From a virus (taxonomy: Duplodnaviria > Heunggongvirae > Uroviricota > Caudoviricetes), in the IMG/VR virus record IMGVR_UViG_3300012943_000001, positions 39,743 to 103,742 of that record: DNA of 64,000 bases. One strand, 5' to 3'. Below are positions 39,556 to 44,371 of the stretch, in pieces (the stretch's first letter is position 1; each line of letters opens with the position of its first letter). Below the pieces are notes generated by a model. It did not search any database and had not been told where the DNA came from. It saw only the letters and a program-made list of their open reading frames with translations. The position numbers were made by a program, and so were the translations under genes.

Positions 39556-40068
39556 ATGACAAAAGAACAAAGTAACGTAAAACAATTCATGCAAACGTTT
39601 GGTCAGGCCACGCCTGATAAACCCACAATCCCAGACGAGAAGACACGCGTGCTTCGCGTCAAGCTCCTACTTGAAGAGGTATTGGAGTTGGCAGAGGCAA
39701 GTGGCGTCAAAATCACAAGTGAGATTCCAAAGGGTGAACAAGTCACGGGCGGCAACCTTTACTTTAGCACGAACGATGACGAGGTAAATCTAGTTGGAGT
39801 GGCAGACGCTTTAGCTGATATCGACTACGTTAATCAGGGTGCTGCGGTCGCTTACGGTTTAGACCTAGAGCCGTTCTGTGAGGAAGTCCACTCTTCCAAT
39901 ATGACGAAGCTTTGGAGCCTAGCAGACCTCAACCTCATGCCCCCAGACCATACGTCCGTGGCAAAGGGCGATAAGTACCTAGTGCGTAGACCGGATGGGA
40001 AGGTCGTTAAAGCCCCGTCTTATCGTCCAGCGGACCTCGCGTCCGTCTTGGCAAAACAGACGGCTTAA
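39556..40068 (+). CDS. MazG-like / PRA-PH NTP pyrophosphohydrolase
   Basis: LRVKLLLEEVLEL, VADALADIDYV, EEVHSSNMTK, DGKVVK.P.Y. Confidence 0.88.
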   Translation: MTKEQSNVKQFMQTFGQATPDKPTIPDEKTRVLRVKLLLEEVLELAEASGVKITSEIPKGEQVTGGNLYFSTNDDEVNLVGVADALADIDYVNQGAAVAYGLDLEPFCEEVHSSNMTKLWSLADLNLMPPDHTSVAKGDKYLVRRPDGKVVKAPSYRPADLASVLAKQTA

Positions 40069-40101: not shown

Positions 40102-40338
40102 ATGCTATCCAATGTTTCCATCATTCACGAGAGTTCCGAAGAGCCCATTCTCACGTTCCTTGACTTTAAGGATAAGGACGACGGCACGATAGATACAGAT
40201 ATTCAAATCGAGGACGACTTCTTGATGGAAGCATGTCATGATTTGACGGCGGAAGAGATGTCAGAACTGGTCCAAGAACTCATTATAAAGGCAACGAACA
40301 AGGAAGATGGGCTTAGACTGTTGATTGAGAAAGCGTAA
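40102..40338 (+). CDS. Hypothetical acidic protein
   Basis: 78-aa ORF behind TTGAAT-16-TATAAT. Confidence 0.55.
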   Translation: MLSNVSIIHESSEEPILTFLDFKDKDDGTIDTDIQIEDDFLMEACHDLTAEEMSELVQELIIKATNKEDGLRLLIEKA

Positions 40339-40976
40339 TGAAGTCTTATATCCAGTCTACGAGTAGGGTTGAAGTAAAGAATTCTTTGAACGGTCATGAT
40401 ACCGTAGGGGTTCCGTTACTTCATTTGAACACGACAGAAATTATTTCTGCCGTAAATAAAGGCATCGCTTTGGTTTTCGCTTCTTCTGGCGATACCAATG
40501 GAGTCGTCTATTACATAGGTACAAACGGTCTACAAGTCGGATTCTCAAACCCGCATCCAGCGAAGATAACCAACTCCGCTTTAAGCGTCACTCAAGGCTC
40601 TGTTACCATTCTTACAGATAGACAAGAACAAGCCTTCTCTACAAGCTCATCTGGTGACAATTGGATTAAGATTGACTTGGGGCCAACACGTACACTTGCT
40701 GTCAATAAATACACACTAAGAAACAGAGGTGAAGGCGGCTGGCATATTCGCAATTGGAATCTCCAAGGCTCCAACGACAATACGACTTGGACAAATATTG
40801 ACGAGAGAACGAACGACTCAACGATTAGTTCGGGCGGAGCTTGGGGAGCGTTCGACACTCCTCTTTCTGGGGCCTTTCGATATCTCCGCGTAATCATGAC
40901 CGGAAATAACAGTTCAGGAAATCGCGAGCTAACTATCTGCGAATACGAGTTTTACGGAATTCTCTTCGAAAGTTAA
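40338..40976 (+). CDS. Discoidin/F5-8C-like domain protein, paralog family C (1 of 3)
   Basis: GDTNGVVYYIGT..NP..W.KIDLG..YTLR..RNWNLQGS.D...W..ID..FRYLR..L.ICEYEFYG. Confidence 0.7.
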   Translation: MKSYIQSTSRVEVKNSLNGHDTVGVPLLHLNTTEIISAVNKGIALVFASSGDTNGVVYYIGTNGLQVGFSNPHPAKITNSALSVTQGSVTILTDRQEQAFSTSSSGDNWIKIDLGPTRTLAVNKYTLRNRGEGGWHIRNWNLQGSNDNTTWTNIDERTNDSTISSGGAWGAFDTPLSGAFRYLRVIMTGNNSSGNRELTICEYEFYGILFES

Positions 40977-41032
40977 ATTTTTCTTTTGACAAAACCCAAA
41001 TTTCTGGGTAACTTATAGTAGTTCTTTTTAAT

Positions 41033-41372
41033 GGGCGTGTTCATGGATTCGCCTTCCGTTGTATTTGAAAGTGGCAAGCAGAAGAATGATTACCGTCTTC
41101 TTAAAAAACGTGGTCAAATTACAAACGACCTTTGTATGCTTAAAGCGTCCTAACCGACCTTTCGTCAACCCATAGAAGCCTGATAAGTGGAGTTTGACGT
41201 TAAACATTGGGCAAAACTATTTACGCTCAGGGTTGTTGGTACAACTAGAGAAAAACTGCCCAGAGTAGGTCGCTCGTTAGCGAAATGGGTTGTACTTAGA
41301 AACGAGACAAGCTTGTAGATGCTGTAGAAGAATACGGGAGATACAGGGGTTCGACTCCCCTCACGTCCACCA
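41033..41372 (+). ncRNA. ssrA: tmRNA (one-piece), predicted tag (A)TNDLCMLKAS*
   Basis: 5' GGGCGTG..GGATTCG pairs with 3' T-arm GGGGTTCGACTCCCC + CACGTCC-ACCA (G3.U70 pair); 340 nt; internal ORF 41121..41153 after CAAATT; upstream TTGACA-17-TAACTT. Confidence 0.92.
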
Positions 41373-41378
41373 ATTTAT

Positions 41379-41888
41379 ATGTTTCACAACAAAAAACACT
41401 ATCCTCAGTTGGCTGTTCTCGAAGACAACTTTGAGGTCATACGCAAAGAGTATGAGCAGATTAAAAAACTGAGAATGTACAAGTGGCCAGAAAAGGAAAA
41501 ATACAAGGGTAGCTGGTCAACTTTTGGACTCTATCATAACGGCAGGAAGTTAAAGACAAGTTCTAAGCAATGTCCGAAGACGGTAGAGTTGATTGAAAGT
41601 ATGGGTAAGGTCGCTATGGCAGGCTTTTCCATCATGGCCCCGGGCACACAGATTCATGCTCACGTAGATAAGGTTCCCACGTTTGTTTATAGGGTGCATC
41701 TTGGTATTGATATACCAAAGGGAGAGTGTAGTTTTTGGGTCAATGGTGCATGTAAAAAATGGGGCGACGGCGAGGCATTTTTATTTGACCCTTTACTGGT
41801 TCATAGTGCATGGAACAGGACCACGGAAAACAGAGTTATTTTACTCTTAGATTTTGAAAGCTTTAATCCGCCAGCCTCCAGACAGTAA
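41379..41888 (+). CDS. Aspartyl/asparaginyl beta-hydroxylase family 2OG-Fe(II) oxygenase
   Basis: CPKTVELI, GFSIMAPGTQIHAHVD (HxD), RVHLGI, W.DGEAFLFD...HSAWN....R.ILLLD. Confidence 0.9.
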   Translation: MFHNKKHYPQLAVLEDNFEVIRKEYEQIKKLRMYKWPEKEKYKGSWSTFGLYHNGRKLKTSSKQCPKTVELIESMGKVAMAGFSIMAPGTQIHAHVDKVPTFVYRVHLGIDIPKGECSFWVNGACKKWGDGEAFLFDPLLVHSAWNRTTENRVILLLDFESFNPPASRQ

Positions 41889-42087: not shown

Positions 42088-42348
42088 ATGAAGTTATGGC
42101 TTACAAAATGTCATGGTGGTCGCTATATGGTTACGTTATTCAAACCAATTATTGCGAGGATTAGAGGAACGGAGTATATGGATGCGTTTGAAAAGGTGGG
42201 AGAACCAATTGCGGTAAAACATCTTTGTGAGCCGGGTATAAAATCCTTGCTCGGCCTGACGCTTGAACCGCTCACTCCAACGAAAATCGAGATAACGGCA
42301 AACGTTCTCGTCACTCTTGAAAAAGAAGAAGATGAAGATTCTAGTTGA
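42088..42348 (+). CDS. Hypothetical protein
   Basis: 86-aa ORF. Confidence 0.55.
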   Translation: MKLWLTKCHGGRYMVTLFKPIIARIRGTEYMDAFEKVGEPIAVKHLCEPGIKSLLGLTLEPLTPTKIEITANVLVTLEKEEDEDSS

Positions 42349-42372
42349 CATTCTTGAAACTCTAAGTATTAT
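42345..42372 (+). promoter_or_regulatory. Sigma70-like promoter for the ncRNA cassette / Ro60 locus
   Basis: TTGACA-16-TATTAT with nested TTGAAA 9 bp downstream of the -35. Confidence 0.6.
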
Positions 42373-42402
42373 AGGTATAGTTCTTTTAAGTTAATTTCAA
42401 AC

Positions 42403-42545
42403 GTCCCATTCTCGGGACTACAAGGAAGCAAGGTAGAGGCGTTCATCGTCATTGCTATATGAAACGCCAACCCCACTGTCGCAAGACAAGGGAGCAGAGC
42501 CCGTAAGGGCGATGACCAGTAATGTTCATCAAACTGTCCTCTCCA
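42403..42545 (+). ncRNA. Candidate novel structured RNA (multi-hairpin, pseudoknot-capable)
   Basis: GTCCC/GGGAC hairpin; GGCGTTCAT/ATGAAACGCC stem; TGTC-GCAA-GACA and GCCC-GTAA-GGGC GNRA hairpins; loop GTCATTGC complementary to GCGATGAC. Confidence 0.6.
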
Positions 42546-42563
42546 ATTTTCTCCTTAAAATTT

Positions 42564-42610
42564 GCCCGACCTTTTGTGGTTCGGAGGTTTGAATCCTCCA
42601 TCGGGCACCA
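42564..42610 (+). ncRNA. tRNA-like minihelix (acceptor stem + T arm + ACCA; no D or anticodon arm)
   Basis: GCCCGA..TCGGGC-ACCA acceptor stem and GGAGG-TTTGAAT-CCTCC T arm, joined by only about 12 nt. Confidence 0.7.
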
Positions 42611-42659
42611 TTTTGGCTTCATCTCTGACGTTTTTCATTTTTCGTCGGCATGAAGCTAA

Positions 42660-42680
42660 GGCCGTAACTATAACGGTCCT
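42660..42680 (+). ncRNA. Exact copy of 23S rRNA helix 69 (GGCCGTAACTATAACGGTCCT)
   Basis: Identical, as I recall the sequence, to E. coli 23S nt 1906-1926; no other rRNA sequence flanks it. Confidence 0.8.
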
Positions 42681-42682
42681 TT

Positions 42683-42723
42683 AAGGCGATTTCGTTTCAT
42701 CACGAGTCGCCTTTTTTATTTTT
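42683..42723 (+). terminator. Intrinsic terminator ending the ncRNA cassette, upstream of the Ro60 gene
   Basis: AAGGCGAT-TTCGT..ACGA-GTCGCCTT stem followed by TTTTTTATTTTT. Confidence 0.75.
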
Positions 42724-42754
42724 AACACTAACACATCAAGGAATAAGGAAACAT

Positions 42755-44317
42755 ATGGCAAAGTTTAATACAAAGTCAAATAGGGTTAAGGCAGCAAAGC
42801 AAGTACGTGCATCCAAGGGTGCGACTAAGAGCAAGGTTGTAATCAATCGTGCGGGCGGCTTTGCGTACTCAATGAAGGATAAGACGGAACTCGTCACGCT
42901 TCTTCTAACCTCATTCGTAGCAGACAGTTTCTACGAAAAGGGTCAGGATACGGCAAAGCGTGTCCAAGAGCTTATCGCAAAAATTCCAGACAAGCAATTC
43001 GTCGCAAAGGCTGCGGTCTACGCACGTAAGACGTTTGGTATGCGTTCCATCTCCCATCTTGTTGCGGGCTTGCTTGCACAAGAGGCATCCATCAAGGGTC
43101 AGGAGTGGACAAAGACCTTCTTCGACAAGGTAGTCCACCGTGTTGACGACATGTTGGAAATCATTTCCTTCACACAGAAGGACGGTAAGAAGCCATTGCC
43201 AAATTCCTTGAAGAAGGGTTTCCGCTCTGCGTTCGACCGTTTCGATACGTACCAATTGAGCAAGTACCAAGCTGACAACGCAGGTTTGAAGCTTGTAGAT
43301 TTGGTGAACATCATTCACCCAATCCCAACCGAGCGTAACAAGGACGGCTTGAACGCACTTATCAATGGTAAGTTGAAGAACCTTACAACGTCTCAAACGG
43401 CGTTGACTAACATTGGTCAGGTCGCCAAGAACGACGAAGAGAAGGCGGAGCTACGTAAGGACTATTGGAAGACCGTTCTAACCAATCGTAAGCTTGGCTA
43501 CACGGACCTAGTTCGTTCCCTTACGAAGATTGCCAAGGACGCACCAGATGCGGTTGATTTGGCGGTCGCAACGCTTACAGACGAAACTCTAATCAAGAAG
43601 AGTCTTGTAATGCCATACCAGCTTTATATCGCCATGAAGATGGTCGAGAAGGAGCTTGGAGCCACCTCTGAGTGCCGTAAGCTTTCTGCGGGCCTAGCAA
43701 AGGCCGTAGACATCTCATGCAACAACGTTCCTACCTTCGGTGGTAAGACCGTAGTTGTCGTTGACCGTTCAGGTTCTATGGATAGCCCGCTTTCCAATGG
43801 AAAGACGGACGTTCTTAAGATGTCTGAGGTAGGCACACTTATGGCGTTGTTCCTTGCACGTAACAACGACACTGACTTCGTTATCTTCGGAGACGACGCT
43901 AAGTATGTTCCTTACAATGCAAACGATTCCATCTTGACATCCGTCAAGACACTCCTTGGTTACAATCAGGGCTATGGTCACGCGGGCAACTACAACGTTG
44001 GTCACGGAACGAACTTCCACGCAATCTTCAAAACATTGAACAAGAAGTACGACCGCGTTATCATCTTCTCTGACATGCAGGGTTGGGCGGGCGGTCACTA
44101 CAGCCTAAATGGCGACATTGACTGGTACGCAAAGAAGTATGGTGCAAGGCCATTCTTGTATAGCCATGACCTTCGTGGTCACGGTTCTCTTCAAATTCCA
44201 GAAGAGAAGACATTCGTATCTGCCGGATTCTCTGAAAAGATTTTCGACGTTATGAAGCTTCTTGAGCAAGACAAGGAAGCGTTGGTCAACTCAATCGAAA
44301 AAGAGGTAACTCTTTAA
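42755..44317 (+). CDS. rsr: Ro60/Rsr TROVE-domain RNA-binding protein with vWA domain
   Basis: INRAGGFAY, AVYARKTFGMRS, FDTYQLSKY, MPYQLYIA, VVVDRSGSM (MIDAS), VIIFSDMQ, AGFSEKIF; strong SD AAGGA. Confidence 0.93.
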   Translation: MAKFNTKSNRVKAAKQVRASKGATKSKVVINRAGGFAYSMKDKTELVTLLLTSFVADSFYEKGQDTAKRVQELIAKIPDKQFVAKAAVYARKTFGMRSISHLVAGLLAQEASIKGQEWTKTFFDKVVHRVDDMLEIISFTQKDGKKPLPNSLKKGFRSAFDRFDTYQLSKYQADNAGLKLVDLVNIIHPIPTERNKDGLNALINGKLKNLTTSQTALTNIGQVAKNDEEKAELRKDYWKTVLTNRKLGYTDLVRSLTKIAKDAPDAVDLAVATLTDETLIKKSLVMPYQLYIAMKMVEKELGATSECRKLSAGLAKAVDISCNNVPTFGGKTVVVVDRSGSMDSPLSNGKTDVLKMSEVGTLMALFLARNNDTDFVIFGDDAKYVPYNANDSILTSVKTLLGYNQGYGHAGNYNVGHGTNFHAIFKTLNKKYDRVIIFSDMQGWAGGHYSLNGDIDWYAKKYGARPFLYSHDLRGHGSLQIPEEKTFVSAGFSEKIFDVMKLLEQDKEALVNSIEKEVTL

Positions 44318-44341
44318 CGGTTAGTTAGTTCTAGTTTATAC

Positions 44342-44371
44342 GGGGCAATCCTTTGGGGTTGCCCCTTTTTT
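44342..44371 (+). terminator. Intrinsic terminator after the Ro60 gene
   Basis: GGGGCAATC-ctttgg-GGTTGCCCC + TTTTTT. Confidence 0.9.

Follow-up and report, generated by a model that had tools for sequence, protein, structure and literature searches.

The non-coding stretch at positions 42345-42722 of a 64,000-nucleotide segment of phage DNA (the window; positions 39,743 to 103,742 of IMG/VR record IMGVR_UViG_3300012943_000001) is probably a Y-RNA operon for the phage's own Ro60. The source record comprises 205,462 bp with direct terminal repeats at its ends, and the virus is therefore a jumbo phage. Genes for about 45 tRNAs and a set for RNA repair are also present in its genome. Between the end of a small open reading frame (ORF) at position 42348 and the Ro60-encoding ORF at 42755-44317 lie 406 nt without a conserved reading frame. 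Here, a single promoter precedes about 340 nt of non-coding RNA that is conserved and shows covariation; the Ro60 gene comes next. An earlier note on this DNA had proposed a new system made up of a promoter, RNA modules, terminators and a Ro60 gene, with a transfer-messenger RNA (tmRNA) gene nearby. All of these elements were found at the positions it gave. The alignment of relatives, covariation, and Pfam and fold matches identify the cassette as a set of genuine conserved non-coding modules tied to a true Ro60 gene. The claim of novelty did not hold, since the locus is a variant of the known Ro60/Y RNA arrangement (PMC4201824, PMC12135203). The features of the cassette and the gene are as follows:

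42345-42387, plus strand: sigma-70-type promoter with leader box; -35 element at 42345-42350, -10 element at 42367-42372 or 42376-42381.
42379-42387, plus strand: conserved leader box AGTTCTTTT, from the alignment of relatives.
42403-42418, plus strand: leader hairpin seen in the fold; varies among relatives and is separate from the conserved unit.
42420-42557, plus strand: Y-RNA-like 'handle' RNA; 124 bits with covariance model R1, 58.3 bits (E 2e-9) with covariance model R2, and covariation.
42564-42610, plus strand: tRNA-like minihelix with an encoded ACCA end, from pattern search and covariation; probable signal for RNase P and 3'-end processing.
42613-42659, plus strand: long hairpin with a U-rich loop containing UUUCAU, from fold prediction.
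42660-42679, plus strand: exact copy of 23S rRNA helix 69; 20/20 nucleotides equal to positions 1906-1925 of the 23S rRNA of Escherichia coli (rrlH).
42683-42722, plus strand: intrinsic terminator hairpin with U run; hairpin 42683-42714 in the fold, nearly invariant in relatives.
42755-44317, plus strand: Ro60 gene (TROVE and vWA domains), from Pfam, phmmer and AlphaFold/Foldseek.
44342-44371, plus strand: intrinsic terminator of the Ro60 gene, from the terminator scan; hairpin 44342-44365.

Judged by its sequence and modelled fold, the product of ORF 42755-44317 is a true Ro60, as the earlier note had assumed. The TROVE domain was recognized by Pfam model PF05731 (39.9 bits against a cut-off of 23; E 3.9e-10), which is also present in all close homologs. 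By sequence, Ro60 of Thermus phage phiLo (9l5y, 9kop; phmmer E 1e-16 over residues 33-513) is the nearest protein of solved structure, with an identity of about 21-25%. An AlphaFold model built from 33 homologs reached a mean predicted local distance difference test (pLDDT) score of 77.9. Its 13 best PDB matches in Foldseek were all Ro60 proteins, namely those of Xenopus, human, phiLo, and Deinococcus radiodurans (E 1e-14 to 2e-12; TM 0.62-0.67). The fold matches ranking next after these were vWA domains. Residues 332-490 of the model alternate between strand and helix as in a vWA domain, and the residues D337, S339, and S341 of the DxSxS metal site are invariant among the 33 homologs. A C-terminal vWA domain with this metal site is present, with the vWA model PF25045 itself scoring 18.8 bits only, under its cut-off of 27.7. 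The sequence 5' of the ORF is AAGGAAUAAGGAAA, with a Shine-Dalgarno-like AAGGA at 42744-42748.

No relatives of the locus were found by blastn against GenBank phages, and a single-protein search of IMG/VR gave no close relatives. These were drawn only from a large protein collection. Their TROVE proteins are 57-76% identical to that of the window and are encoded, in the same gene order, on other contigs of about 100-220 kb. In the eight relatives fetched first (L002-L009), a non-coding gap of about 370-430 nt is located 5' of each TROVE gene. The aligned gaps share a conserved promoter, a structured domain and a mini-tRNA; these are followed by a variable stretch and then by a nearly invariant terminator hairpin. 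The consensus fold of the first two modules contains 44 pairs, 21 of which display compensatory changes. Conservation of the modules beside homologous phage Ro60 genes, on which the earlier note had staked its proposal, was thus found. In the window, the region 42380-42725 is also more stable than its shuffled versions (z = -5.1; none of 100 shuffles was as good).

The structured RNA that had been placed at 42403-42545 is indeed structured, but the conserved unit extends over 42420-42557, and 42403-42418 forms a separate, variable hairpin. The unit ends 198 nt 5' of the Ro60 start codon, on the same strand. Its basal helix, P0, pairs 42422-42428 with 42551-42556 and leaves A42426 bulged. The second helix, P1, pairs 42432-42440 with 42536-42544. 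The junction motifs are GUUCAUCG and CAAUUUUCUCC. The apical domain comprises four hairpins, two of which carry GNRA tetraloops, and has no T-loop. A pseudoknot between 42448 and 42509, suggested previously, was rejected, since the partner sequence is absent from relatives in the gap alignment.

With a covariance model built from 42420-42557 and the 10 relatives closest to it (R1), weaker full-length matches were also obtained 5' of TROVE genes that are just 39-45% identical to that of the window. These distant matches have in common the outer part alone, which we termed the handle. A second covariance model, R2, was restricted to the handle; the window was absent from its seed alignment (A5), which included close relatives. 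The layout starts with P0, a basal helix with one bulged base in which GG-N-AG is paired with CUCC, plus three to four outer pairs. An internal loop and P1 follow. The motif directly 3' of the P1 5' strand is unpaired and reads UUACUUCG or UUUCAUCG. As for fixed motifs, UUWCWUCG follows the 5' strand of P1, a run rich in A precedes its 3' strand, and CAAUUUNCUCC comes next; the 3' end of the handle, after the A-rich run and the P1 3' strand, is CAAUUU-N-CUCC. The window RNA has all of these features, that is, the bulged P0, the internal loop, P1, UUWCWUCG, the A-rich stretch, and CAAUUUNCUCC. Across the family, the length of the cargo enclosed by P1 varies between about 15 and about 130 nt.

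At E <= 0.1, R2 gave 136 matches in 72 of 80 IMG/VR TROVE loci. All 136 were on the TROVE strand and nearly all were upstream of the gene; in L088, L066, L095, and L072 handle RNAs occur downstream. The RNAs are often arrayed, with up to seven copies per array. A crude regular expression for the 5' half of the handle matched 241 times on the TROVE strand and 12 times on the opposite strand, in 134 of 159 loci, with a peak at 0-500 nt before the TROVE gene. Compensatory changes affect each of the eight P1 pairs among 64 R2 matches, with pairing in 93.7% of cells. P1 had a covariation score of 0.578, as compared with 0.194 for shuffles; no shuffled or slid control came near. P0 in its bulged register was paired in 89.5% (shuffle maximum, 74.5%), with four to six pair types at the outer pairs. 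No published description of this RNA family was found in the literature. The handle is a large RNA family absent from Rfam.

Three other assignments for parts of the handle were tried and rejected. Pairing of GGNAG with UUNCU in the 3' strand fails at the middle pair in 35 of the 64 sequences, and pairing was at the level of shuffles. Pairing of GGNAG with the junction motif in a front hairpin was inconsistent when tabulated by eye. A role of the P0 3' strand as an anti-Shine-Dalgarno element was discarded because P0 covaries freely in distant members.

Further handle RNAs are located outside the window, in the tRNA array of the same genome. The R2 match at 163464-163600 of the genome (G000) has junction motifs as in the window RNA and a cargo consisting of a T arm, a closed hairpin and a D arm; this RNA abuts a tRNA-Thr gene. 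The array also includes a minimal handle RNA of 73 nt (166370-166442) and a third, weak R2 match (160744-160841). In two distant phages, arrays of at least eight tRNA genes stand directly 5' of the handle RNAs and TROVE (L030:35-1014 and L091:512-1137). The locus L180 (positions 1-430), whose TROVE protein is 53% identical, begins with the 3' end of a tmRNA gene, directly followed by a promoter and two handle RNAs. The second of these encloses an unpermuted tRNA-like cloverleaf (50 bits with the Rfam tRNA model), which ARAGORN reported as tRNA-??? with a two-base anticodon.

The earlier note had linked the cassette to tRNA-mimicking Y RNAs of the YrlA type. This link was recovered as transitive homology: the models made from the window RNA match loci that are also matched by the YrlA model of Rfam. 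The latter matches exactly the handle RNAs of L094 (44.8 bits), L095 (41.8 bits), and L051 (35.4 bits), with E values of 4e-7 to 2e-4, all scores being below the gathering score of RF02553, 69 bits. Inside the handle, L094 and L051 carry a T arm, a closed acceptor hairpin and a D arm; YrlA is defined by this permuted tRNA layout. When YrlA is aligned to L094, its basal helix coincides with P1, and the A-rich 3' junctions of YrlA and the handle likewise match up. In 20 distant phage TROVE loci, no YrlA was found by Rfam at the gathering threshold, only tRNAs. On the strength of the YrlA matches in L094, L051, and L095 and of the shared handle, sequence comparison identifies the window RNA as a divergent YrlA-type Y RNA with four plain hairpins in place of the tRNA mimic; we do not file it as YrlA.

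Among the closest known systems is Rsr (Ro60) of bacteria and mycobacteriophages, with the Y RNAs YrlA and YrlB (Chen et al., 2014, PMC4201824; RF02553). In Mycobacterium smegmatis, YrlA and YrlB are located upstream of rsr on one precursor, and YrlA is cleaved by RNase P and gains CCA (PMC4201824). As in that system, the RNA of the window is encoded just upstream of Ro60 (within about 4 kb) on the same strand. It is closed by a stem made of its 5' and 3' ends, with both P0 and P1 covarying, it has an A-rich junction before the 3' strand of this stem, and tRNA mimicry occurs in the cassette. Unlike YrlA, it has P0, an additional basal helix with a bulge, and its fixed motifs differ (UUWCWUCG and CAAUUUNCUCC). 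The permuted module of T arm, closed acceptor hairpin and D arm was not found in the window handle RNA, its place being taken by the four plain hairpins, and the tRNA-like part is a separate, unpermuted minihelix with genome-encoded CCA.

Another close parallel is Thermus phage phiLo (Hu et al., 2025, PMC12135203; PDB 9KOP, 9L5Y), which also has a phage Ro60 with two Y-like RNAs upstream. Its Yrl1 and Yrl2 bind phiLo Ro60, and the resulting particle damps PNPase (PMC12135203). The phiLo hairpin with the CGAA motif recalls the terminator hairpin of the window's clade. In contrast to the handle, Yrl1 and Yrl2 are defined by the CGAA motif and a single-sequence fold rather than as a conserved family, and no tRNA-like or rRNA-like module has been reported for phiLo.

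The module 42564-42610, which the earlier note had described as a tRNA minihelix, is real, with compensatory changes in both stems among relatives. It consists of a 6-bp acceptor stem, a 12-nt D-loop-like linker with GUGGU, a 5-bp T stem, a T-loop UUUGAAU, and the end A-CCA. Of the features of a tRNA, it has the acceptor stem, the T arm (UUYRAAU loop) and the 3' NCCA end. The acceptor stem and the T stem are separated by 12 nt only, so that there is no cloverleaf and no anticodon arm, and neither ARAGORN nor the Rfam tRNA model called a tRNA here. The same design, 47-49 nt long, occurs in L002-L008 and L179, with pairing and CCA kept. It was not found in L009, L181, L178, and L180 nor in distant loci by our search, which was a pattern search rather than one with a covariance model.

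Minihelices composed of an acceptor stem and a T arm are substrates for RNase P as well as for the CCA-adding enzyme. In the window minihelix, as in these substrates and in the tRNA-like domain of tmRNA, the acceptor stem stacks on the T arm, the D arm is replaced by a linker containing GG, and the 3' end is ACCA. Unlike the tmRNA domain, the minihelix has no mRNA-like part and no G3-U70 alanine identity pair, and it is located inside a Ro60-linked transcript. By analogy, the minihelix probably punctuates the precursor RNA as a processing signal.

These features suggest a working model. The cassette transcript would be a Y-RNA precursor that also feeds the Ro60 mRNA by read-through. No separate promoter for Ro60 was detectable in the promoter scan of the locus, and the mRNA therefore probably arises by read-through of the first terminator. 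The module 42420-42557 would be the Ro60-binding Y RNA; P0, the internal loop, P1, and the fixed unpaired motifs correspond to the layout of YrlA and other Y RNAs. Its four hairpins would occupy the place of the internal tRNA-like domain of YrlA, the tRNA likeness having been placed outside, in the 47-nt minihelix with CCA. Host RNase P and 3'-end enzymes may cut at the minihelix. Three products would result: the Y RNA, left with a short 3' tail that is single-stranded; the minihelix; and, from the 3' side, an RNA of about 110 nt that carries the helix 69 copy and the conserved terminator hairpin, perhaps with a second site for Ro60.

The terminator hairpin, 42683-42714, was missed by the consensus terminator scanner. 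In most relatives, one strand of its stem is GGCGAAU (pairing with UUCGCC), identical in letters to the YrlA consensus at its basal stem and a near match to the published Rsr motif GNCGAAN0-1G; the window has GGCGAUU. UUUCAU, found at the handle junction, recurs in the loop of the terminator hairpin. Comparable to Yrl2 of phiLo, which is a single hairpin (PMC12135203), this hairpin may provide Ro60 with a second site, although this is a guess. The hairpin at 42613-42659 is not conserved in sequence; its shape alone recurs, in L008.

The function of the particle may be considered by comparison with two systems. The Rsr/Yrn1/PNPase complex of D. radiodurans (RYPER) contains a Ro60 ring and a Y RNA that tethers or gates it. 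The window locus likewise combines a Ro60 ring protein with a Y RNA, and RYPER was the source of our working functional model; its RNA belongs to a different sequence family. By analogy with Rsr/Y RNA/PNPase and with phiLo Ro60, the Ro60 particle of this phage may, during infection, redirect or attenuate RNA decay or surveillance by the host.

Several points weigh against the Y-RNA operon. The Rfam models for YrlA (RF02553), Y_RNA, and tRNA, as well as those for large-subunit rRNA, have no match at the locus, even at E <= 10. The Rsr motif GNCGAAN0-1G is absent from the window handle RNA, which has AAGCAAGG at that place, and the choice of Ro60-contacting nucleotides is a guess. Processing at the minihelix is read from its shape alone. 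Finally, a cis-regulatory role would also be compatible with the location of the RNA, namely the 5' leader of the Ro60 mRNA. In that case, Ro60 synthesis would be controlled by the leader, for example by Ro60 binding to it and changing read-through at the terminator 42683-42720, and the cassette would not yield stable trans-acting RNAs. The position of the RNA between the sole detectable promoter and the Ro60 start, with the terminator 35 nt before the ribosome-binding site, agrees with such a role, and so does L178, where a minimal handle lies 25 nt before the start codon without a terminator. We nevertheless consider it unlikely that the RNA is solely a leader: this does not account for arrays of up to seven handles, for handles downstream of TROVE in four loci, or for those located about 80 kb away in the tRNA array of the same genome, and the minihelix with its encoded CCA points to processing into separate RNAs. 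The cis and trans roles could coexist.

The copy of helix 69 of 23S rRNA claimed by the earlier note was confirmed at 42660-42679; with the next base, the match to E. coli 23S rRNA is 21/21. There is one copy in the 205-kb genome. No rRNA gene matches around it, and the flanks are unrelated beyond a further TAAGG. About 1e-4 exact rRNA matches of this length are expected by chance in the whole window, where all other rRNA matches are of 15 nt or less. No described Ro60 locus with an rRNA-helix mimic was found in the literature, in agreement with the earlier note. The idea that helix 69 is a general module of the cassette was not borne out: the hairpin occurs in 3 of 13 relatives (window, L008, and L179), and unrelated hairpins take its place in the other ten.

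Among these three loci, pairwise identity is 16-18/19 in the helix 69 hairpin and 47-59% in the rest of the variable stretch. L008 has one change and L179 three, two of which are on both sides of the loop-closing pair (U-A to C-G); the loop AACUAYA is kept in L179, where the hairpin is at a different position. The hairpin is far better kept than its flanks, and this pattern indicates selection and not chance. The copies in L008 and L179 have C at the universally conserved position 1917. No real 23S gene with this C1917 variant was found among 185,579 species genomes. The 19 genome matches correspond to chance level, and none is in an rRNA context or near TROVE. An intergenic region of a Myxococcales metagenome-assembled genome (L187:3866-3915) has the C1917 variant followed by CTAAG as in 23S rRNA, outside any rRNA gene and with no TROVE gene nearby. 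IMG/VR contained no further copies of helix 69 besides one genuine 23S contig, and no genes of the RluD or RlmH type were found in the phage genome.

At the same place in the cassette, L003 (2876-2895) has an 18/19 match to E. coli 23S 241-259, a conserved hairpin. About 1e-3 such matches are expected in roughly 1 kb of variable stretches, and over all loci matches of that length are at chance level, so this match is only suggestive. L002 and L004 share AGCGGCG(A/U)GA at that place. A general enrichment of rRNA fragments near TROVE genes was rejected, matches of 13-16 nt being at chance level over 780 kb.

Two readings assign a function to these look-alikes. Tentatively, and with low probability, the Ro60 particle may be a platform displaying imitations of translation RNAs (the elbow of acceptor and T arm, 23S helix 69, and perhaps the 241-259 hairpin of L003) to capture or redirect a host factor. 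Candidates are RluD and RlmH; RRF, RF, and Hsp15/RqcP; or an rRNA-directed defence nuclease. A second possibility is that the two elements, minihelix and helix 69 copy, serve as decoy or bait: host factors binding or attacking the ribosome or the ends of tRNAs would be drawn to them, whether or not Ro60 carries these RNAs. The covarying minihelix, the preserved helix 69 hairpin with its compensatory change and intact loop, and the L003 match agree with this. We regard it as quite improbable, since helix 69 is present in three relatives only, two of its three copies have the C1917 that real 23S rRNAs lack, IMG/VR holds no further copy, and short rRNA matches do not exceed chance. Phage tRNA regions are prone to recombination and the helix 69 copy has a narrow distribution, but the view that both elements are relics, captured pieces of host rRNA and tRNA without own function, is very improbable, given that the size, pairing and CCA of the minihelix are kept in nine relatives via compensatory changes and that the flanks of the helix 69 hairpin are much less conserved than the hairpin, whose position differs in L179.

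Conservation of Ro60 and Y RNAs extends from bacteria to humans, in whom Ro60 is a major autoantigen. The roles of Y RNAs are still poorly understood. The handle provides an easily recognised RNA family beside most of the phage Ro60 genes sampled, and its cargo is diverse, including plain hairpins, permuted tRNA mimics, and a whole tRNA-like cloverleaf. The window adds an external mini-tRNA and an adjoining rRNA helix, the latter being, to our knowledge, the first hint of an rRNA look-alike in such cassettes. Y RNAs can thus be pictured, in a testable way, as modular adaptors, and many natural variants are available for binding and structure work.

The promoter of the cassette, TTGACA-16-TATTAT at 42345-42372, agrees with the sigma-70-type consensus at 11 of 12 positions and is kept in the gap alignment of relatives. 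A second promoter, TTGAAA-16-TATAGT, overlaps the first and has 10 of 12 consensus positions. The combination of TTGACA and TATAGT directly followed by AGTTCTTTT occurs at only two sites in the 205-kb genome, namely at the Ro60 cassette and at the tmRNA gene:

41033-41372, plus strand: phage tmRNA gene; Rfam RF00023, 87.9 bits, E 9e-33.

ARAGORN gave no tmRNA call at this gene despite the Rfam score. In the tmRNA region (40986-41372), the AGTTCTTTT box is within the transcribed leader. The gene at 41379-41888, between the tmRNA gene and the cassette, encodes a cupin resembling aspartyl/asparaginyl beta-hydroxylases (Pfam E 9e-39), and a protein with an F5/8 type C (discoidin) domain is encoded just 5' of the tmRNA gene (40338-40976). 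The order of tmRNA gap, hydroxylase, cassette and Ro60 is repeated in relatives, in which Laminin_G_3 proteins come after Ro60.

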